From a virus: a stretch of DNA of 64,000 nt. This document shows positions 2 through 49,368 of this stretch, piece by piece (position 1 is the first letter of the stretch; each line of letters starts with the position of its first letter). Under the pieces are notes generated by a model that was not told the DNA's origin, did no database searches, and saw only the letters and a list, made by a program, of their open reading frames with translations. The position numbers and the translations under genes are program-made. The DNA lies in the IMG/VR virus record IMGVR_UViG_3300027770_000032; one strand, written 5' to 3'.

Positions 2-2596
2 ACTGTAGGTTCTAGCTTCATTGCCAACACGAGCAAAGTGGCTATCGGTACGGCAGTCGGACTTGAAGCGAACGGTGGTATCGGTACTGCCGGTCAAGTA
101 TTACACTCAAATGGTACTTCGATATACTGGGCAGTTGATGACAATGCCGGAGGAACAGTCACATCTGTCGCAACTGCCAACGGTCTTTCTGGTGGTCCAA
201 TTACATCAACTGGTACACTCGGTGTAACGACCGGTTCGACACTTACGGTGAATACTGCCGGCATTCATGTGAACTCAGCCTTATCAATCACATCTCTTAC
301 GTTAGCAGGTGCAGCTTCTGGTGTTACGACACTTGCTGCCGGTAATACAACAATTACAGGTTTTGCAAACGTAACAGGTAACGTACAAATAAGCGCGATC
401 AATGCAACCTCATTTGGCGCTACGCTTACTTCAAATTCAACGACCGCTATTTTAACTCTTGGCAACTCTTCTGTTACCGCAACAATGAATAGTTCAACCT
501 TTAGTGGCACTGCAAACAACTCTACGAATCTTGACGGGTCTTCATTAGCTACAGTACAAGGTCAAATTACTGGTAACGCTACTACTGCATATACAAACTC
601 AGTATCCTACACTGACACAAAGATCGGTACAGCGAATACTGCGATGGTTGCAAATGCCGGTGCAGCATATACCAATGCGACTATTTTTGCTGCCAATGCT
701 TCGAATGCAAACAATGGCACATTAGCTTTTGCTCGATTACCTTCATTGTTTGTTGGAACGACTACGATTCAGTCAACAAGTGCTGCACAAGCCGTAACAG
801 GTATTACGACGCTTGCCGCAGGTAACACGACGATTACTGGTGATATTACCGTTTCTGGTAACCTTACTATCAATGGTACTACAACCAATATAAATTCTAC
901 AAATCTTGTTGTAGAAGATAAAAACATTGTGCTTGCTGACGTAACTACTCCGACCGATGTGACTGCCGACGGTGGTGGTATTACTCTGAAAGGTGCCACC
1001 GATAAGACATTTAACTGGGTTGATGCAACTGACAGCTGGACTTCTTCTGAACATATCGATCTTGCGGCCGGTAAAGTCTATAAGATCGGTACTACTACTA
1101 TTGCTAACTCTACAGCTTTAGGTACTGGAATTCTTGCATCGTCTCTTACCTCTGTAGGCACTTTAAGTTCTCTTACGCTCGGTGGCGCAGTATCAGGCGT
1201 CACAACACTCGCTGCCGGTAATACTACTATTACTGGCTTTGCGAATGCTTCAGTTTCGGTCAACTCAGCATTGTTAACTGTGGGTACAGCCTTTGTTGCT
1301 AATACGATTGGAGCTTTTCACACTGGTACTGTTAACGCTGCATCATTTACAACCACTGGTTTAACAATTAATACTACTGCTATTGTTCCTACATCAAACT
1401 CATCAGGGCAGACATTAGGTAATACCACTTCTAGGTTTGTTTTGTCCGCCAACTCAATTGACACAACAGGCGCAATTAACATCGCCGCCGGGCAAGTGTT
1501 AAAATTCAATAATGATGTTGGTATTTCTCGCTCGCAAGCTGCAGTATTGTCTATCGGCAACGGAACTCAAAATGATTCTACTGGAACAATAAGTCTTACT
1601 GGTGGTTTATTTCAAGGCGCAGTCAATGCAGCTTCACATACTGTCGGTTCTAGCTTCATTGCCAACTCAACGGGCATTACATCAACTGGCTTTGCAAACG
1701 TATCGACTACATTACAAGTGGGAACGAATACAGCCACCTTTGGTACCGCTGTTTATATTATAGCAAGTGGTAACACCGGTGTTGGTACAAGTTCTCCGGC
1801 ATCACTGTTTCATGTCAAACGCGGCAGCAATGCTACCGAAAACTACCCTACTAATACTTGGGCGGCGCGCATTATCAATGCCACCGATGCCAATACTGAA
1901 AATGGCCTTGTTGTCGGCAATCGCTGGGCTGCGGTTGAGTCAACAATTTTTGAAGCCGGGTCGATTTATGGCGGAGGCTCTGCTTGGGCATCTTATTATA
2001 AAGTCACAGGCATTGGAACGCACACTTGGGGCACGGGCTCAACTGGCACTGAAGCTATGCGTATCGATACTAACGGTAACACTGGTATTGGTAACACCGC
2101 ACCGGCCCATAAATTATCGATAGGTGGCACGCTCGCAGCCGGTAACACTACGATCACGGGTTTTGCTAACGTATCGACCACTTTACAAGTAGGAGGCATT
2201 TCTACTCTTGCCGCAAACTTAGTAATGGCCAACAATTTTATTACTCGCCCAGTGTTAGCAGGTTACTCTGAACACGAAGTGTCAAACACGGCAGTTACTG
2301 GTACATTTACACTAGACTTTTCGACTGCAAACTTCTTCGATCTAATACTTACTGGAAACACGACAATCTCACCATCTGGAATTCCAGCGAATACAAGAAT
2401 GGTTTCTGCTACACTTGCAGTCAAACAAGATGCGACCGGAGGAAGAACCATTACATGGCCGACAGGTACTAAATACGCGGGTGCTGTCTCGCCTCCTGCG
2501 ACAACGACTGCAAATGCTGTCGATATCTGGTCGATTATGACGTACGATGCGGGCAATACTTACATTGTTTCATTGTCAGTAAAGAATGCGAGCTAA
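2..2596 (+). CDS. Long tail fibre protein, 5'-truncated by window edge
   Basis: Frame is open from base 2 (TVGSSFIANTSKVAIG...). T/G/A/N/S-rich with repeated TLAAGNTTITGFANV units and myovirus fibre motifs (VEDKNIVL...ADGGGITLKG.TDKTFNW, MRIDTNGNTGIG). C-terminal QDATGGRTITWP domain. Confidence 0.8.
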   Translation, partial: TVGSSFIANTSKVAIGTAVGLEANGGIGTAGQVLHSNGTSIYWAVDDNAGGTVTSVATANGLSGGPITSTGTLGVTTGSTLTVNTAGIHVNSALSITSLTLAGAASGVTTLAAGNTTITGFANVTGNVQISAINATSFGATLTSNSTTAILTLGNSSVTATMNSSTFSGTANNSTNLDGSSLATVQGQITGNATTAYTNSVSYTDTKIGTANTAMVANAGAAYTNATIFAANASNANNGTLAFARLPSLFVGTTTIQSTSAAQAVTGITTLAAGNTTITGDITVSGNLTINGTTTNINSTNLVVEDKNIVLADVTTPTDVTADGGGITLKGATDKTFNWVDATDSWTSSEHIDLAAGKVYKIGTTTIANSTALGTGILASSLTSVGTLSSLTLGGAVSGVTTLAAGNTTITGFANASVSVNSALLTVGTAFVANTIGAFHTGTVNAASFTTTGLTINTTAIVPTSNSSGQTLGNTTSRFVLSANSIDTTGAINIAAGQVLKFNNDVGISRSQAAVLSIGNGTQNDSTGTISLTGGLFQGAVNAASHTVGSSFIANSTGITSTGFANVSTTLQVGTNTATFGTAVYIIASGNTGVGTSSPASLFHVKRGSNATENYPTNTWAARIINATDANTENGLVVGNRWAAVESTIFEAGSIYGGGSAWASYYKVTGIGTHTWGTGSTGTEAMRIDTNGNTGIGNTAPAHKLSIGGTLAAGNTTITGFANVSTTLQVGGISTLAANLVMANNFITRPVLAGYSEHEVSNTAVTGTFTLDFSTANFFDLILTGNTTISPSGIPANTRMVSATLAVKQDATGGRTITWPTGTKYAGAVSPPATTTANAVDIWSIMTYDAGNTYIVSLSVKNAS

Positions 2597-2599
2597 GAT

Positions 2600-3922
2600 A
2601 TGGGTATTGGTGGAGGTTCTAAATTTACACTCGAAAAAACTTGGCGCGCAAGTGGTGTCGGCACGACTACGTTTAATGCACCAGGCAATATCGCAATCCC
2701 TTACGGTAGAAATGTAATCAACGTTGCTGGTGCAGGTGGCACCGGAACAGCAGCCATTTCTGGTAACTTAAACTATAATCCACTTGTACCAGGAACATTA
2801 AACTATAATCCACTTGTTCCAGGAACATTAAACTACAATCCACTCGTTCCTGGTACTCTTAACTATAACCCACTCGTTCCTGGTAACTTGAACTATAATC
2901 CACTTGTTCCTGGAACATTAAACTATAATCCTCTAGTTCCAGGCAATCTGAACTATAATCCGCTTGTTCCCGGAAACCTAAACTATAATCCACTTGTTCC
3001 TGGAACTGCCAACTATAATGCTGTCGTTCCGGGCACTTCTAACTATAATGCTGTCGTTCCGGGCACTTCTAACTATAATGCTGTCGTTCCAGGCAATTCT
3101 AACTTTAACCCAATTGTTCCAGGAACTGCGAGCACATATAATCCAGAGAGCGCAGGAACAGCGAGCTCATATAATGCTCCAAGCCCAGGAACAATTGCTG
3201 GATATACTCCCTATAAAGCCAAAGCGGGTACCGGAGGCAATCCGTTCTATAATGCTCCAACTGCTGGTAATCTGAATTATAACTCTCCTTCTCCAGGTAC
3301 AGTTGCAAGTTATAATTCTCCTTCAGGCGGCACATTTGCTGGTACTAATCCATCAAGTGGAGGTACATTTGCTGGTACTAATCCATCAAGTGGAGGTACA
3401 TTTGCTGGTACTAATCCATCAAGCGGCGGTACTTTATCTTCATACAATGCTCCAACTGGCCAAACATCGACCGGAACATATAATGCTCCAACTGGAAAAA
3501 CATCGACCGGAACATATAATGCTCCAACTGGTCAAACATCAACAGCAACATACAATGCTCCAACTGGCCAAACATCGACCGGAACATATAATGCTCCAAC
3601 TGGAAAAACATCAACAGGCACTTATAATGCACCAACGGGTCAAACCTCAACAGGCACTTATAATGCACCAACGGGTCAAACCTCGACCGGAACATATAAC
3701 GCTCCGACTGGACAAACGTCGTCAACATATAATCCAAATACTCCGGCAGTTGCCGGTACCTCATCATCAGCGCTCGGCGTGACAGCTCCCGGATCGGCGA
3801 CCGGAGGAACTCCAGCAACACCGGTAGGTCAAACACTTGTTAGCTATTATACATATCCAGATAACGCAACATATCCTGTGACAGTGGCTCCTGGGGGTAA
3901 TATAACTATAGTAGTATCGTAA
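2600..3922 (+). CDS. Gly/Pro/Thr-rich repeat protein, probable fibre-tip adhesin
   Basis: Directly follows the fibre gene. A Gly-rich domain (TTFNAPGNIAIPYG...VAGAGG / YPVTVAPGG) is split by ~330 aa of tandem repeats. Confidence 0.65.
   Translation: MGIGGGSKFTLEKTWRASGVGTTTFNAPGNIAIPYGRNVINVAGAGGTGTAAISGNLNYNPLVPGTLNYNPLVPGTLNYNPLVPGTLNYNPLVPGNLNYNPLVPGTLNYNPLVPGNLNYNPLVPGNLNYNPLVPGTANYNAVVPGTSNYNAVVPGTSNYNAVVPGNSNFNPIVPGTASTYNPESAGTASSYNAPSPGTIAGYTPYKAKAGTGGNPFYNAPTAGNLNYNSPSPGTVASYNSPSGGTFAGTNPSSGGTFAGTNPSSGGTFAGTNPSSGGTLSSYNAPTGQTSTGTYNAPTGKTSTGTYNAPTGQTSTATYNAPTGQTSTGTYNAPTGKTSTGTYNAPTGQTSTGTYNAPTGQTSTGTYNAPTGQTSSTYNPNTPAVAGTSSSALGVTAPGSATGGTPATPVGQTLVSYYTYPDNATYPVTVAPGGNITIVVS
2762..3745 (+). 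repeat. Coding tandem repeats: 30-nt (GxLNYNPLVP), 33-nt (GTFAGTNPSSG) and 36-nt (QTSTGTYNAPTG) units
   Basis: Directly visible. In-frame units with synonymous third-position variation. Confidence 0.95.
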
Positions 3923-3946
3923 TTTTTATATAATGAGGAATATATA

Positions 3947-4537
3947 ATGACTTTTGACTTTCAAAAATATAATGCGCCGTTGGAGTGTTTTGCTATATGG
4001 GAAGGTGGATTTACACCTGAAGAAGTAGACAAAATCCTTTATATGGAATCTCTCCAAAACTTTGGAAAAGGTACAGTAGGATCCGAGAATGCAGTTGCTA
4101 AAAAAGAAGTCAGAGACTCTGAAATAGCATGGATTCACCCCGATCAACATTCCCATTGGTTATTTGAACGACTTGCTGCAATCACATCAACCATAAATCA
4201 TCAACAATTTATGTATGATATTAAAGGTGTTGAACTTCTTCAATACACAAAATACAATATTAACCAACACTACACTTGGCACTGGGATGTTGAGTTTGGT
4301 TGGCAAAACTTTCAGCGTAAAATCTCTGCCACGATGATGCTCTCTGATCCTGATGAGTATGAAGGTGGTGAACTCGAGGTTTGCAATAATGGCAATTTTG
4401 AAGATACTAAAGTAGTGAAACCTAAAAAAGGTGATATTGTTTTCTTTGCATCTTGGATGCCGCATCGAGTAAAACCAGTTATTTCTGGTGAAAGAAAATC
4501 ATTGGTAATGTGGGTAATGGGAAAAAGGCAATCGTAA
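3947..4537 (+). CDS. 2OG-Fe(II) oxygenase, PKHD/prolyl-4-hydroxylase-like
   Basis: YTWHWD (HxD), YEGGEL, PHRVKPV (distal H), RKSLVMW (RxS). Confidence 0.9.
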   Translation: MTFDFQKYNAPLECFAIWEGGFTPEEVDKILYMESLQNFGKGTVGSENAVAKKEVRDSEIAWIHPDQHSHWLFERLAAITSTINHQQFMYDIKGVELLQYTKYNINQHYTWHWDVEFGWQNFQRKISATMMLSDPDEYEGGELEVCNNGNFEDTKVVKPKKGDIVFFASWMPHRVKPVISGERKSLVMWVMGKRQS

Positions 4538-5253
4538 TGTTTAACTTCTTTAAAAAACCGGTGATGGAATTCTATTGCCATCCAGAACAACATGGTGTTA
4601 TTCCTGAACCAAAACCGGCTGCAAAGTATATAGCAGATTGGTTTAAAAAAATTCCTGTCGATCTTGATGAAAGAGACACGTTTGGTGCTCGATCAATGTC
4701 TGCAAAGAAATGTATGCCAATGCTAGATGCAATGACATTAGGATACGTGATTCCTTTACAAGCAGATCTACATCTCATTTCTAATCACGATCGCACTCAT
4801 ATTGAGGTGACAAATCCTCCTGGTACAAAGATTTGTGAGTTTCATAATATCAAGCAAGTTGGTGAAAAGACTGCGCCCGGATTTCCGGCAGCTCCAATAA
4901 AGTTCATCAACTATTGGGTGATTAAAACAAAGCCCGGTTATTCTACGATGATCATGCCATTAGTTAATAATTTTGATAATGACTTTACGTGTTTGTCAGG
5001 TCTTGTCGACACTGATAGATATCCTAAAGAAATCAATTTTCCTGCAATCTGGCACACTCCTAACTTTGATGATATTATTCCAGCAGGAACTCCACTTGTT
5101 GTAGTGTTTCCTATTAAAAGAAGCGATATTCCATCTAAACCAATCGTCAGAGAAATGACCACTAAAGAATTTAAACACATTGATAATATCAAAAAAGCAC
5201 AAGACAGTCGTCGTCATGTCTATACACAAGAATTGAGGGAACCTAGAAAATGA
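4537..5253 (+). CDS. Conserved hypothetical protein of phage oxygenase clusters (DUF6065-like)
   Basis: KKCMPMLDAMTLGYVIP, W.IKT.PGYS, G.VDTD.Y, IPAGTPLV motifs. ATG overlaps the previous stop. Confidence 0.55.
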   Translation: MFNFFKKPVMEFYCHPEQHGVIPEPKPAAKYIADWFKKIPVDLDERDTFGARSMSAKKCMPMLDAMTLGYVIPLQADLHLISNHDRTHIEVTNPPGTKICEFHNIKQVGEKTAPGFPAAPIKFINYWVIKTKPGYSTMIMPLVNNFDNDFTCLSGLVDTDRYPKEINFPAIWHTPNFDDIIPAGTPLVVVFPIKRSDIPSKPIVREMTTKEFKHIDNIKKAQDSRRHVYTQELREPRK

Positions 5254-5969
5254 TTTTCAATTTTCTTAAAAAGAAAAAAGATCTTGAATTTGTAGATACC
5301 AGTAGAACTGCTTATCAGACATATCCTGTTGTAAGAGCGGCTGATATCAAACCGCGCACATTTGAATATCAAAAAAACAAATACAAAAAGCATATGTTGC
5401 CTCACTGCCCCGGTATGATTCAATATGCTGAGATGGGATATATTATTCCTGCATGGATTGATATTCACATTAGAGCGAATAAAGCAGGTGTTGCTCACTA
5501 TATTGGATCTGACGAACGCGGAACCCGCGGATATTTGCCAGGTAGAGTAATGGGTGCAGACGTAATCGATGGGATCTTTGAACCAGAAGATGGTGTTCCG
5601 TTGACTCCTCTTAATTTTGGAGCACCTTGGGCTATTTTTGGTCGTGGTAATATTACAGCCTTGTTATTACCTGCGATTTATCATTCAGACTTCTTAGACG
5701 ATTTGATGGTATTACCTGGATCTGTTGATTATGAAAAGTTTCATACTGCCAATTTTATCTGTGCTCCAAAGCGTGAGTGCGAGGTACATATCAAAGCTGG
5801 AGATCCTTTGTTGCATGTGATCCCGTTCTGGAATAAAGAATTTAATGCTGGATTTGGGCCTGGATCACAAGATCAAGTAGACAAATGGAATAATGAAATT
5901 CCCGGTGATGATAAACAATATTATCGTAGGTTTCAAATGTTAAAGAAAGTGTTTAGGTTGTCAAAATGA
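5250..5969 (+). CDS. Paralogue of the preceding hypothetical protein (DUF6065-like)
   Basis: CPGM...GYIIPAW, PGSVD, IKAGDPLLHVIPF align with the upstream gene. Confidence 0.55.
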   Translation: MIFNFLKKKKDLEFVDTSRTAYQTYPVVRAADIKPRTFEYQKNKYKKHMLPHCPGMIQYAEMGYIIPAWIDIHIRANKAGVAHYIGSDERGTRGYLPGRVMGADVIDGIFEPEDGVPLTPLNFGAPWAIFGRGNITALLLPAIYHSDFLDDLMVLPGSVDYEKFHTANFICAPKRECEVHIKAGDPLLHVIPFWNKEFNAGFGPGSQDQVDKWNNEIPGDDKQYYRRFQMLKKVFRLSK

Positions 5970-7036
5970 AAATATTTGTATCAATCTGTTCTTATAGAGA
6001 TCCACTTTTACATTATACTCTTGAGAGTTTAATTGAAAACAAATCAAATAGACACGAAGCAACTTACTCGATCTTAGAACAGATCGTATACAAAGACTCG
6101 CTTGAGAAGTTATATCCAGAACTTGTGGCAAGACCGGATGTTGTTTATAAAAGAGTCGAACCACAATATTCAGACGGGGTAGGTTGGGCGAGAAAGGTTA
6201 ACTCACTGAATGTAAGAGATGAGGATTTCTTTTATCAAATCGACAGTCATATGGTGTTCGATGAAAACTGGGATCGATATCTTGTAGAAGACTATAAGCG
6301 TGGTGTCAAGAAATCTGGTAGTAAGAAAGTTATTATTGACGGTGGAACTAAAACTTATACGTTAACTGAAAAGTTTGAACCGTATAAACATATAGAAGCT
6401 TACGGAATTACCACACATGCAAAATATTTTATGTGGGACAGAAATTCTATATTAGCAGTACATGGACATCATGTTCCTCCTACACCAGATGTGATGCCTA
6501 CAGCACATCTTTTTGCCGGCAATCTTTTTACTCATGTCGAATGGCTTCAAAATGTAGGAATCAATCATCTTTCGTTTTTTGATGCTGAAGAACAGCTTCT
6601 TACTATGACATCATTTGAAGCCGGTTACTATATGTACGCGCCGACTGAAGTTAAAGTATATCATTTCGCCGGATCCGGAGAGTATACTACTAAACAGTGG
6701 TATAAACCTATTATTAGTATGGATAAATACTCAGAATGCGTAAAAATATCTGTTAAACAGTGGACAGATTATCTTGAATATGTTCAAGAATCCGTTCTCA
6801 TAGATTACTACAAATATTCTGGCGTAGATTACATTAATCAAAAGATCGAAGATCGCGGTCGAGACTATCCTGCATTAGTCAGTAAAATGAATTATCCTTT
6901 GATACCAGGCGAAACTCACGTCGTTATTAATAAAGAAATTGAAGAAGACACTAAATCTAATATAATTGTTAATGAAGAAATTCAAGATGATAAAGGTGAA
7001 ATAACAAATGACAGTGCCGAATCTCAAACGGAATAG
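5966..7036 (+). CDS. Glycosyltransferase, GT60 / Skp1 hydroxyproline GlcNAc-transferase (Gnt1)-like
   Basis: IFVSICSYRDP, GVGWAR, QIDSHMVF..NWD (DxH), EE..L and YH motifs are typical of the GlcNAc/GT60 family. Confidence 0.8.
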   Translation: MKIFVSICSYRDPLLHYTLESLIENKSNRHEATYSILEQIVYKDSLEKLYPELVARPDVVYKRVEPQYSDGVGWARKVNSLNVRDEDFFYQIDSHMVFDENWDRYLVEDYKRGVKKSGSKKVIIDGGTKTYTLTEKFEPYKHIEAYGITTHAKYFMWDRNSILAVHGHHVPPTPDVMPTAHLFAGNLFTHVEWLQNVGINHLSFFDAEEQLLTMTSFEAGYYMYAPTEVKVYHFAGSGEYTTKQWYKPIISMDKYSECVKISVKQWTDYLEYVQESVLIDYYKYSGVDYINQKIEDRGRDYPALVSKMNYPLIPGETHVVINKEIEEDTKSNIIVNEEIQDDKGEITNDSAESQTE

Positions 7037-7469
7037 AGAATGTGGAGATTGTAAAGAATGCTGTACGGGCACTTTATATGCTGATATTTACGGAAAAATT
7101 ATGGATAAGGGAAGACCGTGTCACTACTTAGGTGGAGAGGGTTGCACTATTTATGAAAAAAGGCCAGGTGTTTGTAAAGCATATGCATGTGAATGGCTAA
7201 GAGATGATTCGACACTTATTCCAGAATGGATGAGACCGGATTTATCAAAAGTTATTATTACGCAAAAAGGCTGGGGTGATAATCTTCAACACAATTATTG
7301 GAATATCGCAGAAAGCCATCAGAAGATTGATTCTGTAATCTTAAATTGGGTCTATATGTATACGTCTTCTCATAATATATGTGCTAACATTGAAGTTGAC
7401 GGAAGATGGTATCAAATGGGCCCTCCCGAATTTGTAGAATATATGCAGAGAAGTGTTTCGGCGACTTAA
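7008..7469 (+). CDS. YkgJ/FliB-like cysteine-cluster (Fe-S/Zn) protein
   Basis: CGDCKECC...CHYL...GCTIYEKRPGVCKAYAC. Confidence 0.8.
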   Translation: MTVPNLKRNRECGDCKECCTGTLYADIYGKIMDKGRPCHYLGGEGCTIYEKRPGVCKAYACEWLRDDSTLIPEWMRPDLSKVIITQKGWGDNLQHNYWNIAESHQKIDSVILNWVYMYTSSHNICANIEVDGRWYQMGPPEFVEYMQRSVSAT

Positions 7470-7473
7470 ATCT

Positions 7474-8067
7474 ATGTTATACGAAGAAATAAAACTTAAA
7501 AATCCTGGGGTATTAAAAACAAAACTACCTAATGATATATTCAGGCAGATAAAAGCTGATGCACTTGCAGATGCTGAAAAAAAGATCCCATATAATGAAC
7601 ATTTAGTAGGTCAAATTGCTGGTGAATATCAAATCAAAGTAAATCCATATTTTGAAAAAATTATTAATAATATGTGGATTGAATATAGAGAAAGATTTGA
7701 CTATCATCTTTCAAACCAATATTATATTTCTGATACAGCATGGATAAATGTCCAGAAAAAACATGAATTCAATCCCGTGCATCATCATGAAGGTGCAGCA
7801 TCTTGGGTTATATGGTTACAGATCCCGTATGATTTAGAGGAAGAATTGAACACTTTTAAAAATGCAAAAAGTCGTGATACTTCTTTATTTTATTTTTATT
7901 ATAATTCGTTTATAGGAACACAAGAAAATTCCCCGCTGTATATTGATAAACAATGGGAAGGAACTATGATTATGTTTCCGGCGATGCTGAAGCATAGCGT
8001 ATATCCATTTTATACTACAGACTCTCCAAGAATTTCAATATCTGGGAACATTGAAGTCCATGCATGA
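7474..8067 (+). CDS. 2OG-Fe(II) oxygenase (TIGR02466-like)
   Basis: WIN.QKKHEFNPVHHH, FPAMLKHSVYPF, RISISGN. Start could be GTG 7453. Confidence 0.85.
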   Translation: MLYEEIKLKNPGVLKTKLPNDIFRQIKADALADAEKKIPYNEHLVGQIAGEYQIKVNPYFEKIINNMWIEYRERFDYHLSNQYYISDTAWINVQKKHEFNPVHHHEGAASWVIWLQIPYDLEEELNTFKNAKSRDTSLFYFYYNSFIGTQENSPLYIDKQWEGTMIMFPAMLKHSVYPFYTTDSPRISISGNIEVHA

Positions 8068-8890
8068 TATTCAATTTTGGAAAGAATTATGTCCAAATCT
8101 TACGATTGCAGAAATAGATCGTTGGGCAACACCGTCAGAAATTGCTATAGAAGATGTCAAAGATAAAATAGTTAACGACGGATATTTCCATATACCATTT
8201 GACTCATGGAATCTGCCTTTCGATGAAATGACTCGATGCATTGAAAAGTTAAAAGATCTTGATATGCAACCAGTATGGTGTTTTATATACGACGAGTTTT
8301 GGTTATTGACGGTCAAGATCGATGCACACATCAAATCTATTCTTGGTGAAAATTATTATCGGCTTCCTGAAGTGTGGGCATGGCATATCGATCCATCGAA
8401 AGAAGAAAGAGGCTGGAAGATACATCGAGAAGGCGGATATTATAGTACATTTGATGACGGTCTTCCAAAAACTTTAACTATCTGGATTCCTTTAACAGAT
8501 GCAACTTCAGAGAATGGTTGCATGTGTGTCGTGCCAATAGCAAACGATCCTAACTTTTATAATACAGACGAATCGTATTATGCAAATTGGCAAGAAGATT
8601 TTTATGATAATAGTAAAAAAATACTTGAAGCCAAATCAGGAGATGTGCTTGGATGGCATCCGCAGATATTACATTGGGGGAAAAAATCTACTAATAAAAA
8701 TGCAAATCCGCGAATATCAATATCCATGGAGTTTGTTTCGAATCGTATATTAGAACTAAATGATACTGCGTGTTTTTATGACAAAGAAGAACATCCATGG
8801 TTAGATCCATTTTATATTCCAGATCTGACTAAAAAGACAGAACTCATAAATAAGCTAGTATCACGATATCAACATATGTGGGAAAAGTAA
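8060..8890 (+). CDS. PhyH-family 2OG-Fe(II) dioxygenase
   Basis: WKIHRE, TIWIPLTDATSENGCM.VVP, GDVL...LHWG, PRISIS. Confidence 0.8.
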   Translation: MHDIQFWKELCPNLTIAEIDRWATPSEIAIEDVKDKIVNDGYFHIPFDSWNLPFDEMTRCIEKLKDLDMQPVWCFIYDEFWLLTVKIDAHIKSILGENYYRLPEVWAWHIDPSKEERGWKIHREGGYYSTFDDGLPKTLTIWIPLTDATSENGCMCVVPIANDPNFYNTDESYYANWQEDFYDNSKKILEAKSGDVLGWHPQILHWGKKSTNKNANPRISISMEFVSNRILELNDTACFYDKEEHPWLDPFYIPDLTKKTELINKLVSRYQHMWEK

Positions 8891-9499
8891 ATGCCTGAAC
8901 TAACCAAATACGAAAAATTAGTAAGACTTCAGCCGGTCGATTTTGTGCCTGAGATACAATTGTATCTATGTGATACAGCACATCACATCGTATATCCCGA
9001 TAGATATCCTTGTTGGGCATACGCATGGGTAGGCGGAAAGGCACTTGCCAGATATATTCTTGATAATCCGCAATTAGTTCAAGGCAAAACAATCATTGAC
9101 ATGGCAGCTGGATCTGGAATTGCAGCCATCGCAGCTAAAATGGCTGGCGCTGCAAGAGTAATAGCAGTCGATGACTATACACCGAGTATAGAAATCATGC
9201 AACTCAATGCTGAAGCGAATGGCGTTGAAATAGAATTGGTTCAACAAAGCGTTTTTGACTATCAACCAAGCCACGCCTATGACTTATTCATAATGGGCGA
9301 TCCATTCTATAACGATGATCTCTTCTCGTATGTTGAAAATAATTTCAAACCAGTACTTGTCGGATGCCCGGTAAGATCTCATACTTTGTATTATAATTTT
9401 TATGTAAAAAATCCAATACACACATATACTATTGAATCACCTCCAGGCTACGACGACTATCTCGAATTTGACACACACATTTGGTGGTTAAGTGCCTAA
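8891..9499 (+). CDS. SAM-dependent protein (lysine) methyltransferase, ETFbeta-KMT/PrmA-like
   Basis: WAYAWVGGKALARYILDNP, IIDMAAGSGIAAIAA motif I, LNAEANGV. Confidence 0.8.
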   Translation: MPELTKYEKLVRLQPVDFVPEIQLYLCDTAHHIVYPDRYPCWAYAWVGGKALARYILDNPQLVQGKTIIDMAAGSGIAAIAAKMAGAARVIAVDDYTPSIEIMQLNAEANGVEIELVQQSVFDYQPSHAYDLFIMGDPFYNDDLFSYVENNFKPVLVGCPVRSHTLYYNFYVKNPIHTYTIESPPGYDDYLEFDTHIWWLSA

Positions 9500-10250
9500 A
9501 TTTACGTGTTTATTAACACCAGGAAGATCGGGCTCTACGTTTTTATACACTGCATTTAATCAAATTCCAAATACTATTGCACATGAATCATACTATGTGT
9601 GTACTGATAATATCGAGCAGTGTTTTTCTTCTATTTACGGAAAATCGTTGGCAGAAAAAAACAGATTCATAAAGTCTAAGATCGAATATATCGAAAACTT
9701 AGACTGTGAATACTATGTTGATACTGTATCTCTTATATGCCAAGATAATAACTTAGAGTTGTTTATCGATAACGGTTATAAACCAAATGTCATTACGCTT
9801 CGCCGTGATCCAAGAGATGTTGCCTTAAGCTGGTATAGTTTTGGTTGGGATCCGACTAAGTCGCCTTTAACATCTGTCAATCCAAATGACAAAGATGCCA
9901 TCAAAATCACATTACAGGATCCACATGATTATCAATATTGTTTATGGTATTGCTTTGAGATTGAAAGACTGTGTAGACAATATAAAACAAAACTTGAATC
10001 TTGGGGCGTCAAACATTATGAAACATCCTTGTCTCATATAATAGACAAAGACAAGTTTAATTTGATGTTAGATTTTTTTGAAATGCCTAACATATCAGAG
10101 ATATGTCAAGGTAAAATAAATGAACTGAATGAATTTAAGGTCAGATCATTAGAAAATCATCTAATTCCTGAGTTGCAACAGCAGTTTCTAGAAAACATTA
10201 GAGACAATAATGACATAGAGTTTTTTGATATGGATCAGTGGAACTATTAG
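9492..10250 (+). CDS. Sulfotransferase-like protein
   Basis: PGRSGST (5'-PSB loop) and LRRDPRDVALSW (3'-PB). Confidence 0.65.
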   Translation: MPKFTCLLTPGRSGSTFLYTAFNQIPNTIAHESYYVCTDNIEQCFSSIYGKSLAEKNRFIKSKIEYIENLDCEYYVDTVSLICQDNNLELFIDNGYKPNVITLRRDPRDVALSWYSFGWDPTKSPLTSVNPNDKDAIKITLQDPHDYQYCLWYCFEIERLCRQYKTKLESWGVKHYETSLSHIIDKDKFNLMLDFFEMPNISEICQGKINELNEFKVRSLENHLIPELQQQFLENIRDNNDIEFFDMDQWNY

Positions 10251-10849
10251 TCTCTATAAACAGGAAGTGGAAAACCATATTGTGCTACATTTCCTGGTGA
10301 AACATAATGTAAAAAGGCTTGTGTGATAGATTTTTGTTCTACCTTTGGTCGATAATGCCATCTTCCGTCAAATTCGGTTGTGCCATAAAACATAATAGCA
10401 TCTCCTTCTTCCATAAAGACTTCTACAGGATTTGATCCGTGTTCGTCATCACAGAAACATAAAGACGTTGGCTGATCGCCGTCTTTGTCAATTAGTATAG
10501 TAGCTGAGAATTCACAGACAGAACGATCTCGATGGATCTTGAGTTCAGAATCGGTATAATATTGCCTAAAAAATACATAAGAAGGAATCAATTCAGTATT
10601 AAAGATGTCTTGCACTTTATTCTTATATGCGAGCAGCATACTATCAGCAAAGATAGTAGGTTGATAGTGATCGACATTGCCAATGAGATAAGGATTTGCT
10701 TCTACAGTCTTAATATTCGAAGCCTGTGAAACATCCATAAAAGACTTACAAATCTGAATTACTTCTGCAGATAAAAAGTTCTTGATGAGAACATATCCAT
10801 GTTTTTTAAGATGTTTTCTAGCGTTTTTCATTATATGCCTTTCATCCAC
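10247..10849 (-). CDS. 2OG-Fe(II) oxygenase
   Basis: R.Y...L.IHRDRSVCEFS, GDA.MFYG, WHYR, QAFLHYV. Confidence 0.8.
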   Translation of the reverse strand: MDERHIMKNARKHLKKHGYVLIKNFLSAEVIQICKSFMDVSQASNIKTVEANPYLIGNVDHYQPTIFADSMLLAYKNKVQDIFNTELIPSYVFFRQYYTDSELKIHRDRSVCEFSATILIDKDGDQPTSLCFCDDEHGSNPVEVFMEEGDAIMFYGTTEFDGRWHYRPKVEQKSITQAFLHYVSPGNVAQYGFPLPVYRD

Positions 10850-11592
10850 TTTGTTCCATGCTTCGAGCTGTACTTTGTTTCAGGATCGTATGCTGCAAAA
10901 TCTTCGTAGCGAGGATCTCCTGGCTCAGCTCGCTTGCCGATGCTATACTCGCCGATATGATTGACGATGTTATTTCCTTCTTCGGTCTTGAGCTTACATG
11001 TTTGCATGCCAAGTTGTTGCAACGATTTCGCGACGACATACTCACTTAAGTTCTTCTCGCCTACTGATTCGGTATGAGGAAGATCTACTATGGCACGCGG
11101 AAAAACACTTGCCAAACTCCAAAAATATGCTTCAGAAAGTTCTCCTCGATATTTTCCGAGTGTAATGTCTGTTTCATAAGCCTGAGTTTCCTCTTCAAAA
11201 TCATACCATTTTTGTCTTGTCAAACATACTTGAGAAACGTTACGATAATCATGTAAGATCTGAGTCATGTCGAGCATTCGAATCGGACAGTTGAACGTCA
11301 CATCATCTTCTGATAGATACACGTAGTCATAATCTCGTTCTCTCAGCAGTTCGAAGGTTCGATTCCATACGTATGGCAAACCCATATTCTGTTGATGTAA
11401 GAAGATCTCGGTAAAACCAAAACTTTTGGCTAACTCGAACATCGTACCATCGTGGCGACCTTTTGGCATATCATCGATAAAGATGCCTTCGACTTCACAA
11501 CCTTCAAAGTCTAACATATCACGCTGAGATTTGAGTGTAGGAATTAAATACTCGAGTCGATTCGTCGACCATATTACTTTACAAACTTTCAT
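10831..11592 (-). CDS. Glycosyltransferase, GT-A (GT2-like)
   Basis: IFIDD, N.GL, YVYLSEDD, HIG motifs. Confidence 0.65.
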   Translation of the reverse strand: MKVCKVIWSTNRLEYLIPTLKSQRDMLDFEGCEVEGIFIDDMPKGRHDGTMFELAKSFGFTEIFLHQQNMGLPYVWNRTFELLRERDYDYVYLSEDDVTFNCPIRMLDMTQILHDYRNVSQVCLTRQKWYDFEEETQAYETDITLGKYRGELSEAYFWSLASVFPRAIVDLPHTESVGEKNLSEYVVAKSLQQLGMQTCKLKTEEGNNIVNHIGEYSIGKRAEPGDPRYEDFAAYDPETKYSSKHGTKWMKGI

Positions 11593-12140
11593 CTCACTTG
11601 CTCCGTGTCAAAAAAGAATGTCTGAAAAAGACGTCCATCATATAAATCTTTCCCAAAGTAATCTAAGCTAGCATGGAAAAGGTCACCGCTATAAAGAATC
11701 AATCGATTGTATTTGTTGCCTACAACATCGATTCGATCCCACTTGGTATAGTCATATGCTTCGTGCTCGTTTGTTGGAGCCCGATATTCGCCTGTTTCTT
11801 TGTGCCGATACATGGCAGTGCCAGCGGTATATGGAGCATCTGGTGACAAGTAGCATACACCAGCCCACATGCTTGTATGATCGCAATGAATCCACGTTCG
11901 ATCTAAAGCGGTAGCGTATTGAAAGGCACCAGTATAACCGGAATCTTCGTGCCAATTGGAAATCTTTCCGACTGGATTCATCCAATGCTGAATGCAATCT
12001 TTGACATCTTGTGTCAAGAATGAAGGTGTTCGTTTTCCTGGATAGTTACCTATGACGCCAAAGTCTTGAGTTAAAGCAAAGGCTCTGACCGCGTCTGGAT
12101 TGATATAGAAGTTATCAATAATCATCAAGTCTAAATTCAT
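11589..12140 (-). CDS. 2OG-Fe(II) oxygenase-like protein (DUF6445-like)
   Basis: IIDNFY.NPD.VR, YPGKR, WIHCD, YNRLILY...FH, RLFQTFF. Confidence 0.7.
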   Translation of the reverse strand: MNLDLMIIDNFYINPDAVRAFALTQDFGVIGNYPGKRTPSFLTQDVKDCIQHWMNPVGKISNWHEDSGYTGAFQYATALDRTWIHCDHTSMWAGVCYLSPDAPYTAGTAMYRHKETGEYRAPTNEHEAYDYTKWDRIDVVGNKYNRLILYSGDLFHASLDYFGKDLYDGRLFQTFFFDTEQVR

Positions 12141-12171
12141 AATATTTCAAGTCCTCATGCTATACTAGTTG

Positions 12172-12179
12172 TATTTATA
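12172..12179 (-). promoter_or_regulatory. T4-type late promoter TATAAATA driving the minus-strand modification operon
   Basis: TATTTATA on the + strand, ~30 nt upstream of the 12140 start. Confidence 0.7.
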
Positions 12180-12184
12180 CGTCT

Positions 12185-12192
12185 TATAAATA
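12185..12192 (+). promoter_or_regulatory. T4-type late promoter TATAAATA for gp13
   Basis: Exact consensus upstream of the neck gene. Confidence 0.8.
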
Positions 12193-12225: not shown

Positions 12226-12969
12226 ATGGCAACTCCTACTACAAAAGCGACATTTAAAGAGTATTGCCTTCGGAAGCTCGGCAAACCAGTCATTGAGATT
12301 AACGTCGACGATGATCAGGTAGATGATCGCATCGATGAAGCAATTCGTTACTGGTATGACTATCACTTCGATGGTTCAGAGAGAATATACTATAAGCATG
12401 CTATCACGTCAACTGACGTAACAAACAAGTATATCACTCTTCCAGAGAATATCATTGGTGCTGTCAGCATCTTCTCGATGGGTGATCCTTCGATTCGCTC
12501 TGACGACCTCTTTAATATTCGCTATCAGATCGCACTGAATGATATTTATACTTTGACAAACGTATCTCTTGTTCCATACTACATGGTCATGGAACATCTT
12601 GCACTCATGACTGAGCTTCTTGTTGGTAAACAACCTATTCGTTATTCTCGTCACAAAGATCGTCTTTATGTTGATATGGATTGGAATACAGTTGCTGTCG
12701 GTGAATTCTTACTCGTCGAAGCTTACGAAGTTGTAGATCCAGAAACATGGACAGATGCTTATAACGATCGTTGGCTTCAAAACTATGCTACGACTTTGAT
12801 TAAAGAACAATGGGGTTCGAATCTTACAAAGTTTACTGGAATGTCCTTACCGGGTGGAGTACAGTTTAACGGAGAGAAAATCTACAATGACGCGGTCGAC
12901 GCAAGAACTAAGATGGAACAAGAAATGATTTCATCTTATTCCCTTCCGGTTCTCGATATGATAGGTTAA
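12226..12969 (+). CDS. gp13: Neck protein
   Basis: YCLRKLG.PVIEINV.DDQ..DRIDEA...YHFDG; QWG.NL.KF.G..LPGGV. Confidence 0.95.
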   Translation: MATPTTKATFKEYCLRKLGKPVIEINVDDDQVDDRIDEAIRYWYDYHFDGSERIYYKHAITSTDVTNKYITLPENIIGAVSIFSMGDPSIRSDDLFNIRYQIALNDIYTLTNVSLVPYYMVMEHLALMTELLVGKQPIRYSRHKDRLYVDMDWNTVAVGEFLLVEAYEVVDPETWTDAYNDRWLQNYATTLIKEQWGSNLTKFTGMSLPGGVQFNGEKIYNDAVDARTKMEQEMISSYSLPVLDMIG

Positions 12970-47909: not shown

Positions 47910-48161
47910 ATGACTAATTCTGATTACTTGACGATGGCTGAAACTCGTTTCTCATCGGTTCAACGCTACTTTCCTAATTCTTCTGAGTTTAATCGGCTGT
48001 TTAATATCGTTCTTGATATGACAAATAAGATGACTGACGAAGAACGTCAAGCTCATAAGGAAAAATCCATGGAAACACCTGCCACGAAAGCTGCACGCTT
48101 GAAAGAAGAGCAAAGGATTATGCGGCAGATGGAAATGAACAAAGACAGCAACAGCATATAA
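47910..48161 (+). CDS. Hypothetical early protein
   Basis: GGAG RBS. Confidence 0.6.
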   Translation: MTNSDYLTMAETRFSSVQRYFPNSSEFNRLFNIVLDMTNKMTDEERQAHKEKSMETPATKAARLKEEQRIMRQMEMNKDSNSI

Positions 48162-48164
48162 ATA
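48157..48164 (+). promoter_or_regulatory. Late promoter TATAAATA
   Basis: Exact consensus upstream of the 48176 ORF. Confidence 0.55.
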
Positions 48165-48175
48165 AGGAATATAAT

Positions 48176-48367
48176 ATGATTAAGAAAGTTGAAATGCATG
48201 TCAGTGAACACACTCTCGACGAAGATGGTGGTCCTGGTGCACAGTCGATTGATATCAATCTTTATGTTCAAGCACTCGGGGCAACTCCTGCCGAGAAGGC
48301 AGCGATTCGCACTATTATGAATTCGGCTCAGTTGTATATCAATACAGAATTAAAGAATTTAAAATAA
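48176..48367 (+). CDS. Hypothetical protein
   Basis: AAGGA RBS. Confidence 0.55.
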   Translation: MIKKVEMHVSEHTLDEDGGPGAQSIDINLYVQALGATPAEKAAIRTIMNSAQLYINTELKNLK

Positions 48368-48374
48368 AGTTTAT

Positions 48375-48449
48375 TCCCCGATAGCTCAGTGGTAGAGCAG
48401 GTGACTGTTAATCACCTGGCCGGTGGTTCGAACCCATCTCGGGGAGCCA
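48375..48449 (+). tRNA. tRNA-Asn(GTT)
   Basis: TCCCCGA/TCGGGGA stem, CTGTTAA loop, GTTCGAA, CCA. Confidence 0.93.
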
Positions 48450-48600
48450 ATTCGAGTGGGAGATGATGGAGATGCATCTCTTGATTTAAGGCACACTATG
48501 AGGGTCACTAACGACTAGAACCCGAACTGCTGAACCACCGAAGAAGCGACAAATCTAGGGAGTGGTACTCCTGCCCAACCAGCAATAGGTTTGTCGCTTC
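48450..48600 (+). ncRNA. Candidate structured non-coding RNA
   Basis: 15-bp stem (48543-48557 with 48586-48600) enclosing a GGAGT/ACTCC hairpin; additional short stems upstream; no convincing ORF. Confidence 0.35.
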
Positions 48601-48621
48601 ACATTATTCATGGAGATAGTT

Positions 48622-48771
48622 ATGTGGCGTATTTGGGCAAAAGCTTTAGGTGAAAAAGCAAGTCCTTGTGATCGCGAGTCTGATAGAGTCGCTTTGATCC
48701 GAACTCTCTTCATCGTACAAGCCGTCATAGCAAACATCTTTTTGATTGCAAATGCAATTCATCATTGGTAG
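48622..48771 (+). CDS. Small membrane protein (MWRIWAKALGEKA...HW), as seen in T4-like aquatic phages
   Basis: GGAG RBS; hydrophobic C-terminal half. Confidence 0.6.
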   Translation: MWRIWAKALGEKASPCDRESDRVALIRTLFIVQAVIANIFLIANAIHHW

Positions 48772-48780
48772 GAGTAAATT

Positions 48781-49368
48781 ATGGTACAACGTATTAAGAT
48801 TAAAAGGTTTTGGGATATTGATGAGAATGTAGGTGATGAACTGAAAACTCTTGTTCCAAGTGTAACTTTTAAAACTCGTGTTAGAGATGACTTGATTGGC
48901 GGTGACAATCCATATCGCTGGGAAGATGTCACCACGTGGGATCTGTTCGCAGGTAAACGCGTGGTTCTTTTCTCCCTTCCTGGTGCATTCACTCCAACGT
49001 GTTCGACATATCAACTTCCTGGTTTCGAAGAGAAGTTTGCTGAATTCAAGGCTCTCGGAATTAAGGACATCTATTGTGTTTCGGTCAACGATGCGTTTGT
49101 GATGAATGCATGGGCGAAAGCACAGAAGGTGAAGAAAGTCAAGGTAATTCCTGACGGTTCAGGTAAGTTCACTCGTAAGATGGGTATGCTAGTTCATAAG
49201 GATAATCTCGGTTTTGGTGAACGCTCATGGCGTTACGCATGTGTCGTTAATAACGGTAAGATCGAGAAGTGGTTCATCGAACCAGGCGCAGAAGATAATT
49301 GCCCAGTCGATCCTTATGGTGAAACTGCTCCAGAAAACATCTTAAACTGGTTAAAAGAAAATGGATAA
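48781..49368 (+). CDS. Peroxiredoxin (Prx5/redoxin family)
   Basis: FSLPGAFTPTCS, SVNDAFVM.AW, PDGSG.FT, GFG.RSWRYA. Confidence 0.93.
   Translation: MVQRIKIKRFWDIDENVGDELKTLVPSVTFKTRVRDDLIGGDNPYRWEDVTTWDLFAGKRVVLFSLPGAFTPTCSTYQLPGFEEKFAEFKALGIKDIYCVSVNDAFVMNAWAKAQKVKKVKVIPDGSGKFTRKMGMLVHKDNLGFGERSWRYACVVNNGKIEKWFIEPGAEDNCPVDPYGETAPENILNWLKENG

Follow-up and report, generated by a model that had tools for sequence, protein, structure and literature searches.

Conserved linkage of an oxygenase, a DUF6065 pair and a GT60 glycosyltransferase to a candidate fibre-tip repeat protein in T4-like phages

We identified a conserved gene cassette directly downstream of the tail-fibre gene of the virus represented by IMG/VR record IMGVR_UViG_3300027770_000032, of which a stretch of 64,000 nucleotides was analysed (hereafter the window). 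The compact cassette consists of a low-complexity repeat protein (REP) and four genes, which encode a 2-oxoglutarate (2OG)-Fe(II) oxygenase of the prolyl 4-hydroxylase (P4H)/PKHD type, two paralogous DUF6065 proteins (DUF6065a and DUF6065b), and a GT60 glycosyltransferase (Table 1). Since many related phages have kept these genes side by side, chemical decoration of the phage's own fibre is probable. The more specific reading, that phage-encoded enzymes hydroxylate and O-glycosylate REP at the fibre tip late in infection, with lineage-specific elaboration, we favour with a confidence slightly better than even, judging from sequence comparison. The source is an uncultured, distant T4-like myovirus, whose large terminase shares no more than 57% identity with terminases of Synechococcus cyanomyoviruses and whose gp13, gp14, gp15, and terminase genes follow downstream of the region in T4 order. 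As described in an earlier note, which was made from the DNA letters without database searches, 12 consecutive open reading frames (ORFs) lie between REP and gp13 (nine on the plus and three on the minus strand), and the nine plus-strand ORFs are tightly coupled, being no more than 24 nt apart or overlapping by 4–29 nt. Domains were assigned by Pfam, PHROGs, and motif conservation across homologs. Neither megablast of the block (at the DNA level) nor tblastn of GT60 against 50,697 phage records returned a match, and hence no cultured phage with the cassette was found among them.

Viral contigs were searched with the GT60 protein and then with an alignment of its family, which yielded about 90 loci onto which the window proteins were mapped, and a reverse search seeded by the conserved C-terminal domain of REP yielded 60 loci (individual loci are given below as L numbers). 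Across about 140 viral loci the core has the order fibre C-terminus, REP, P4H-like oxygenase, DUF6065a, DUF6065b, and GT60. In the GT60-seeded loci (n = 80) this order is kept wherever the upstream DNA suffices, down to 41% GT60 identity; exceptions are the duplicated L026-type loci and the L013-type loci with two genes between REP and P4H. In the REP-seeded loci, P4H directly follows REP in 60 of 60 and DUF6065a/b and GT60 are present too (the order differs in L152, and GT60 is truncated by the contig end in L144); no REP without the enzymes was found among these 60. The 52 distinct GT60 proteins form 28, 14, and 10 clusters at 90, 70, and 60% identity, respectively.

The unit is found in several architectures: it adjoins the stretch from the cysteine-cluster (CxxC) gene to gp13 in the window, is embedded among fibre genes in L010, has in L013 two genes, one for a 251-aa protein and one Sulfotransfer_2-like, inserted between REP and P4H, is inverted relative to gp13 in L056, and is duplicated in L026–L032. 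Its survival of these rearrangements argues for selection on linkage. In L026-type loci REP is present twice, with a separate P4H paralog behind each copy; the two REPs differ at the C-terminus, and the two P4H paralogs share 43% identity. L056-type loci carry after a different low-complexity protein a second, minus-strand set (DUF6065', P4H', CxxC, and two Oxy_5 oxygenases), apparently another tailoring set with a repeat protein of its own. The low-complexity protein (L056, 15527–17515, minus strand) is longer than 662 aa, rich in Gly, Asn, Pro, and Ala, and built of collagen-like GN(P/A)G units; a 101-aa ORF, the DUF6065 paralog, the P4H paralog, CxxC, and two Oxy_5 follow on the same strand. 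The 251-aa protein of L013 (6404–7159), which has no family match and lies between REP and the Sulfotransfer_2-like gene in the Pro-poor REP clade, is kept in L012, L022, L025, and L030. Taken together, the comparison supports genetic linkage of REP and the enzymes, which are thus not free-floating auxiliary metabolic genes (AMGs). The earlier proposal that the whole block modifies the adjacent fibre, and is not a set of metabolic AMGs, gains from the synteny of REP and enzymes in both search directions; this synteny extends to a core of 4 of the 12 genes.

REP has no Pfam or PHROG match, and an atlas search with it gave no usable match. In T-even phages the gp38 adhesin follows gp37, and REP occupies the equivalent position. 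The C-terminal ~110 aa of the tail-fibre protein are the part that is conserved upstream of every REP, which suggests that this domain is the docking site for REP. The tail-fibre protein also has a TLAAGNTTITGFANV-type segment that is repeated several times, and its equivalent in L012 carries PF01391 and PF26209 (the gp13 ortholog of the same locus is PF26809 Phage_T4_gp13). REP orthologs share an N-terminal domain of ~45 aa and a C-terminal domain of ~55 aa with an invariant [YF]-P-D, and their repeat units differ completely among lineages: LNYNPLVPGT and TGTYNAPTGQTS in the window, ASYNTVPGNxNPTNYPYTP in L010, GPQNFNA in a large clade, and ASYNAQNV in L013. The window REP is rich in Pro, Asn, Tyr, and Thr, as had been noted before. 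In the REP cores Pro makes up between 3.2 and 20.4% of the residues (median 12.5) and Asn between 8.2 and 29.3%, and X-Pro-Gly sites are frequent in most but not all lineages. The sole element that the repeats have in common is an aromatic residue followed by Asn, usually [S/T/N]-[Y/F]-N, at 4–11 per 100 aa; in the window REP, [YF]N dipeptides occur 26 times compared with 4.8 expected from composition. Since Pro is scarce in one clade and X-Pro-Gly is not frequent in all lineages, hydroxylation of repeat Pro, which the earlier note proposed for the adjacent fibre or adhesin, can hardly be the general rule; GT60 and P4H do co-occur with REP across phages, as that note had suggested to examine, but Pro is not the common denominator of these repeats. 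Candidate modified residues are Ser/Thr, Asn, the aromatic residue, and the invariant C-terminal Pro.

The GT60 protein matches PF11397 with 81.3 bits (cutoff 21, E 1.2e-22), in line with its earlier description as GT60-like, and this domain was present in 120 of 120 GT60 homologs among the matches listed. D93-S94-H95 and H233 (30 sequences) and E208/E209 are invariant. An AlphaFold2 (AF2) model (pLDDT 85, pTM 0.80) was compared with the Protein Data Bank (PDB) by Foldseek, and the top matches were all polypeptide N-acetylgalactosaminyltransferases (ppGalNAc-Ts; E ~3e-11, probability 1.00 to GT-A domains); phmmer against PDB sequences gave nothing usable. The GT-A fold, on which the earlier proposal had been made to depend, is thus predicted with confidence. 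Because the fold matches ppGalNAc-Ts and DxH, His, and Glu are invariant, we assign the protein to the GT-A enzymes of the polypeptide N-acetylhexosamine (HexNAc) transferase type, as its predicted activity. The subfamily is essentially phage-only, with one match in 185,579 species genomes. This sole cellular match (L153, DOMR01000007.1) lies on a 4.4-kb contig of the Chitinophagaceae metagenome-assembled genome UBA8137; the contig is probably a mis-binned phage fragment and could be a weak hint at a host.

The P4H-type oxygenase matches PF13640 with 71.7 bits (cutoff 27). All 53 family members have H112, D114, and R183, and 49 of the 53 have H173. Against solved structures, the family profile matched PiuC/PKHD enzymes best (6e-12), ahead of the PBCV-1 P4H (1e-6) and other P4Hs (1e-6 to 1e-3); the matches after PKHD/PiuC were PBCV-1 P4H, Pseudomonas PPHD, Chlamydomonas P4H, and P3H1. 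Peptidyl proline is one candidate substrate. A literature search on PiuC/PKHD substrates returned nothing informative. The second P4H paralog of the L026-type loci has intact iron ligands; the first, which lies between REP1 and GT60 (8438–9001 in L026), may be a pseudo-enzyme, judging from the substitutions described below.

DUF6065a and DUF6065b, recognised as two paralogs already in the earlier note, both match phrog_7084, and translation of DUF6065a probably begins at the ATG right behind the P4H stop codon. The AF2 model of DUF6065a (pLDDT 82) matched many dUTPases in Foldseek (E 7e-5 to 1e-3), and in the VIA-wide comparison the top 22 chains all belonged to the dUTPase/dCTP deaminase superfamily (Z 10.5–6.0; next chain 4.9). 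By two independent aligners the modelled protein thus has a dUTPase/dCTP-deaminase-like fold, and its structural matches include the non-enzymatic viral proteins pp71 of human cytomegalovirus (HCMV) and ORF10. A joint alignment of the paralogs has an invariant G-x-V-D-x-x-x-[YF], which we take to resemble dUTPase motif III; the Pfam dUTPase model had no match in 27 DUF6065 members at E<=1. A cryptic 2OG oxygenase or cupin was considered for DUF6065 and rejected, as the family is without a conserved His/Asp triad and has the dUTPase fold. We infer an ancestry in the handling of uridine or cytidine nucleotides. Full-length homologs (30–35% identity) were found in tailed viruses of haloarchaea (about 49 records), and a few cyanophages have remote homologs; the S-CREM1 copy is annotated as 'triphosphate nucleotidohydrolase'. 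A literature search on DUF6065 found no paper.

The T4-type late promoter motif TATAAATA occurs 12 times in the window compared with 3.25 expected (~3.7-fold), a count that was reached in 0 of 100 shuffles, and most sites are on the plus strand close to the start of a gene and mainly precede structural genes. The divergent motif pair at 12172–12192 serves the minus-strand trio and gp13; the trio thus has a late promoter motif of its own, in agreement with the earlier claim. In related loci, TATAAATA precedes the fibre gene and recurs at the GT60 3' end, usually with no site between the two, an arrangement that fits one late transcription unit from fibre to GT60. These flanking promoter motifs and the GT60 fold agree with the pathway that the earlier note had outlined, a pathway that leaves the dUTPase-fold DUF6065 proteins unexplained.

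In the mechanism that we propose, the oxygenase would hydroxylate side chains of REP in the host cytoplasm late in infection, and GT60 would then attach HexNAc from a UDP-sugar to the new hydroxyls or directly to Ser/Thr. The DUF6065 pair would probably handle a uridine nucleotide or sugar-nucleotide, or else scaffold a trimer. In this phage, the decoration would be elaborated by the additional oxygenases, a GT2-like glycosyltransferase, a sulfotransferase, an N-methyltransferase, and the Cys-cluster protein. The outcome would be a mucin- or extensin-like fibre tip with altered receptor binding, stability, or recognition. The proposal presumes that REP is a virion component and that it is the substrate.

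Several observations weigh against this mechanism. The loci stem from related phages, and their conserved order therefore partly reflects shared ancestry. One REP clade has a core Pro content of 3.2%, and the aromatic-Asn element is the only residue pattern that all repeats have in common; PF13640-type enzymes are not known to act on Asn or on Tyr/Phe. The PiuC/PKHD enzymes, to which the oxygenase is closest among solved structures, have no established substrate. In L026, L027, L029, and L032 (four distinct sequences), H173 of the first P4H paralog is replaced by Ser or Ala and HxD is kept, and without the distal iron ligand a non-catalytic role of this paralog is possible. In cultured cyanophages, relatives of the P4H family are scattered near uvsW and uvsY and are not linked to fibre genes. 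Lastly, distant DUF6065 relatives lie directly downstream of ribonucleotide reductase in cultured phages (Halophage HF1, 48119–49003, L091; S-RIM4, 158324–159118, L155), which points to nucleotide metabolism.

The methyltransferase, the sulfotransferase, the CxxC protein, and the other oxygenases of the region form a variable shell around the core. Window forms of the CxxC protein, Oxy_5, PhyH, methyltransferase, sulfotransferase, and 200-aa oxygenase occur only in the close relatives L001–L004, and the same kinds of shell genes recur around the core in other architectures: sulfotransferases in three (window, L013, and L056), and CxxC and Oxy_5 in L054–L073. The five oxygenase-type proteins counted in the earlier note (2OG-FeII_Oxy_3, 2OG-FeII_Oxy_5, PhyH, DUF6445, and the 200-aa minus-strand ORF m200) share the HxD...H iron signature, accompanied in four of the five by a conserved Arg. 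Beyond the core enzyme, the conserved residues are H110/H112, H181, and R193 in Oxy_5, H112-x-D114, H208, and R221 in PhyH, H85-x-D87, H156, and R170 in DUF6445, and H106-R-D108...H165 in m200. The latter had no Pfam or PDB match (phmmer against PDB sequences gave nothing usable) and is counted as the fifth oxygenase by its PHROG match and the motif H106-x-D108...H165.

The sulfotransferase, previously described as sulfotransferase-like, matches PF00685 above the cutoff and has conserved TPGRSGST and RRDPRDVALS, presumably the binding-loop motifs for 3'-phosphoadenosine 5'-phosphosulfate. The methyltransferase matches Pfam PrmA with 39.2 bits (cutoff 22) over the S-adenosylmethionine (SAM)-binding core only (residues 62–118) and Methyltransf_16 with 31.6 bits (cutoff 21). 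Its nearest NCBIfam models are PrmA, HemK, and PrmB, all far below their cutoffs, and NCBIfam named none of the accessory enzymes; its sequence is thus nearest to protein N-methyltransferases, which agrees in part with the lysine-methyltransferase-like enzyme of the earlier note. Methyltransferase-bearing phages with an available REP (window, L002, and L003) have a central K-x-K in REP, and Lys is missing from half of the other REP cores. These three belong to one clade, so the K-x-K counts as one observation, which makes the suggested Lys methylation of a YKAK tip no more than possible. The CxxC protein has an exact CxxCxxCC and conserved C12, C15, C18, C19, C38, C46, C56, and C61. With 153 aa we take it to be YkgJ-sized and much shorter than FliB, and of the three Pfam models that had been suggested for searching, PF13640 and PF11397 passed their cutoffs and PF03692 did not (19.1 bits, E 0.002, cutoff 23), so that of the label YkgJ/FliB-like the cysteine motif stands and the family match does not.

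The 253-aa protein of the minus-strand trio (m253) has conserved D40-D41 and E95-D96-D97, a PHROG match of 38 residues, and viral GT2-labelled clusters as atlas look-alikes (score 0.98). With such short and remote similarity we tentatively regard it as a probable GT2-like glycosyltransferase, which leaves the earlier assignment to GT-A plausible. An identity with the GT25-like gene that follows DUF6445 in cyanophages was rejected (BLASTP E 0.21, no Pfam match). The pair of m253 and DUF6445 is kept beside gp13 in many loci independently of the core (e.g. L034, 9626–10920). DUF6445 homologs in the cyanophages S-SSM7 and Sf-FS3 lie inside large glycosyltransferase clusters of the lipopolysaccharide (LPS) type, and DUF6445 homologs are labelled 'minor coat protein' in RefSeq cyanophage records.

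Table 1. Genes and late promoter motifs of the window (positions are those of the 64,000-nt stretch)
Feature	Position	Strand	Basis or remark
Tail-fibre protein	2..2596	+	5' end beyond window; PHROG tail-fibre and virion structural matches
REP, repeat protein of low complexity (440 aa); candidate fibre-tip protein and putative substrate	2600..3922	+	Translation
P4H/PKHD-type 2OG-Fe(II) oxygenase	3947..4537	+	PF13640 2OG-FeII_Oxy_3, E 1e-19
DUF6065a, dUTPase/dCTP-deaminase-fold protein (model)	4510..5253	+	PF19541, E 7e-8; phrog_7084
DUF6065b, paralog of DUF6065a (~20-25% identity)	5250..5969	+	phrog_7084, E 8e-16
GT60 GT-A glycosyltransferase, predicted polypeptide HexNAc-transferase type	5966..7036	+	PF11397 'GlcNAc', 81.3 bits
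YkgJ-type CxxCxxCC cysteine-cluster protein, variable shell	7008..7469	+	phrog_9155, E 2e-37
2OG-FeII_Oxy_5 oxygenase, variable shell	7453..8067	+	PF13759, E 6e-13
PhyH-type 2OG oxygenase, variable shell	8051..8890	+	PF05721, E 3e-13
Class I SAM methyltransferase, variable shell	8891..9499	+	PrmA, MTS, Methyltransf_16
Sulfotransferase, variable shell	9492..10250	+	PF00685 Sulfotransfer_1, 26.8 bits (cutoff 22)
Fifth oxygenase-like protein (200 aa, m200), close relatives only	10247..10849	-	phrog_2954, E 5e-31
Probable GT2-like GT-A glycosyltransferase (253 aa, m253)	10831..11592	-	Atlas look-alikes; conserved motifs
DUF6445 2OG-oxygenase-like protein	11589..12140	-	PF20043, E 1.5e-14
T4-type late promoter motif TATAAATA for the minus-strand trio	12172..12179	-	
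T4-type late promoter motif TATAAATA for gp13	12185..12192	+	
gp13 neck protein, boundary marker	12226..12969	+	phrog_211, E 2e-41
Further TATAAATA motifs	16646, 21583, 26739, 37142, 39341, 41623, 48157, 50434	+	

With the shell included, a bolder version of the mechanism can be drawn up, which we consider speculative and would not expect to hold in full. Tailoring by multiple enzymes would go beyond hydroxyproline-linked GlcNAc: the oxygenases would act on non-proline residues of [S/T/N]-[Y/F]-N (Asn or aromatic beta-hydroxylation), GT60 and the GT2-like enzyme would build an O-glycan, and sulfation would follow. The DUF6065 pair would be a new class of uridine- or sugar-nucleotide partner of a protein glycosyltransferase, and the whole a counterpart, in a bacterial virus, of mucin or extensin biosynthesis, located in the cytoplasm.

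Alternatively, the enzymes could act elsewhere, on glycans or proteins of the host envelope (surface remodelling, superinfection exclusion) or on other virion proteins, in which case the fibre region would merely be plastic and expressed late. The DUF6445 homologs in the LPS-type clusters of cultured cyanophages, the P4H relatives near uvsW and uvsY, and the variation of shell genes among lineages are as expected from such targets. This alternative is nevertheless unlikely, as REP and the enzymes co-occur in both search directions in a unit that survives rearrangements, REP and P4H were co-duplicated, the second P4H/DUF6065 set adjoins a different repeat protein, and the nearest solved folds of GT60 are protein O-glycosyltransferases.

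We regard it as improbable that fibre assembly is the main function of the P4H-like and DUF6065 proteins, as chaperones or trimerisation scaffolds for REP whose catalysis is secondary or lost. Proteins with the dUTPase fold are generally obligate trimers, like fibres, and in T4 the fibre chaperone genes directly follow the fibre genes; the loss of H173 in the first P4H paralog (four distinct sequences) and the non-enzymatic pp71 and ORF10 among the DUF6065a matches also favour such a role. On the other hand, the family as a whole keeps its iron ligands and Arg in the numbers given above, the DxH, His, and Glu of GT60 are invariant, and a shell of sulfotransferase, methyltransferase, and more oxygenases makes sense only for chemistry.

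A hypermodification pathway for DNA or nucleotides, modelled on base J and on phage TET-GT systems, is very improbable. T4-like phages often modify their own DNA, and the fold of DUF6065 and the ribonucleotide reductase next to its distant homologs would suit such a pathway. However, a Pfam search of the 12 ORFs found no Tet_JBP, thymidylate-synthase-like, or cytosine methyltransferase domain, the genes lie in a late fibre operon, and they are strictly linked to REP. GT-A enzymes that act on phage DNA are JGT/TarP-like, have R...DDD...EDY/F, and cluster with 5mYOX or ThyS (preprint 10.1101/2023.12.21.572611); the pathway loses support because such TET/JBP or ThyS partners are missing here and because GT60 has DxH and a ppGalNAc-T-like fold, not that of TarP. 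The classical view of cyanophage 2OG oxygenases, as auxiliary genes of metabolism (consumption or sensing of 2-oxoglutarate) or as DNA repair enzymes, was proposed for 2OG-Fe(II) and PhyH-like genes by Sullivan et al. 2010 (PMC3037559) and has hardly any probability here, since it leaves the fixed order with REP, DUF6065, and GT60, the late promoters, and the co-duplication with REP unexplained.

Hydroxylation and O-glycosylation of REP at the fibre tip, the reading that we prefer, would fall into a class that is already known, the virus-encoded tailoring of own structural proteins; our literature search found no publication on a fibre-linked cassette of P4H, DUF6065, and GT60. In the Skp1 system of Dictyostelium and Toxoplasma (PhyA and Gnt1, the latter of family GT60), a PF13640-type oxygenase and a PF11397 DxH GT-A enzyme likewise pair in the cytoplasm on a protein target. 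In contrast to Skp1 with its one Pro, the candidate phage target is a repeat protein with many potential sites, and Pro is not universal in it. The phage cassette also has two dUTPase-fold proteins between the enzymes, its oxygenase is closer to PiuC/PKHD than to the P4Hs in the PDB, and no equivalents of PgtA or AgtA were identified in the phage.

The collagen hydroxylase and glycosyltransferases of Mimivirus have been characterised (PMC9546862), among them the L230 lysyl hydroxylase/glucosyltransferase and R699 (PMC5802723, PMC9546862). As we propose for the phage, Mimivirus encodes both a repeat-rich structural protein (here collagen-like fibre proteins) and a modifying hydroxylase and glycosyltransferase, independently of the host. 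The prolyl 4-hydroxylase of PBCV-1 (PDB 5c5t) is among the detectable sequence relatives of the phage P4H. Mimivirus and PBCV-1 are giant viruses of eukaryotes, whereas the cassette belongs to a bacteriophage; furthermore, the phage repeats differ from collagen triplets, its enzymes are each encoded by a gene of their own, and the GT family is not the one found in Mimivirus. The GT27 ppGalNAc-Ts, the best structural matches of the GT60 model, share its DxH and His metal site and modify Ser/Thr in Pro-rich low-complexity repeats; the phage enzyme has 12–19% identity to them, lacks a lectin domain, and would act in the cytoplasm and not in the Golgi.

Among phages, mycobacteriophages O-glycosylate virion proteins (Freeman et al. 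2023, as cited in PMC12801897 and PMC12619734). According to these citing articles, phage glycosyltransferases encoded near structural genes modify the phage's own virion proteins, namely at the C-termini of capsid and tail-tube proteins and, in the accounts given there, without a hydroxylase; the cassette described here is instead linked to a candidate fibre-tip repeat protein and comes with oxygenases, a sulfotransferase, and a methyltransferase. The gp38 adhesin of T2/S16-type phages (Dunne et al. 2018, as cited in PMC12801897) is, like REP, encoded directly after the long-fibre gene and, as summarised in the citing article, likewise has a conserved N-terminal attachment region and a variable, Gly-rich low-complexity receptor-binding part. 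Unlike what we propose for REP, gp38 is not known to be enzymatically modified, and no sequence similarity between the two was detected. A 2OG oxygenase is contained in the virion proteome of a cyanomyovirus (PMC12801897), and host-dependent methylation of a tail protein is essential in a mycobacteriophage (PMC13445384).

If the proposed decoration of REP is confirmed, receptor-binding fibres of these phages would carry phage-encoded hydroxylation, glycosylation, and sulfation, and determinants of host range and stability would exist in addition to those seen by sequence-based prediction of receptor binding, from which they are hidden. Part of the pool of 2OG-Fe(II) oxygenases that is very abundant in aquatic T4-like phages would then have to be reassigned from metabolism or DNA repair to virion chemistry. 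Protein glycosylation of the GT60 type would no longer be known from protists alone, and the DUF6065 family, which is also present in haloarchaeal viruses, would gain a testable context.

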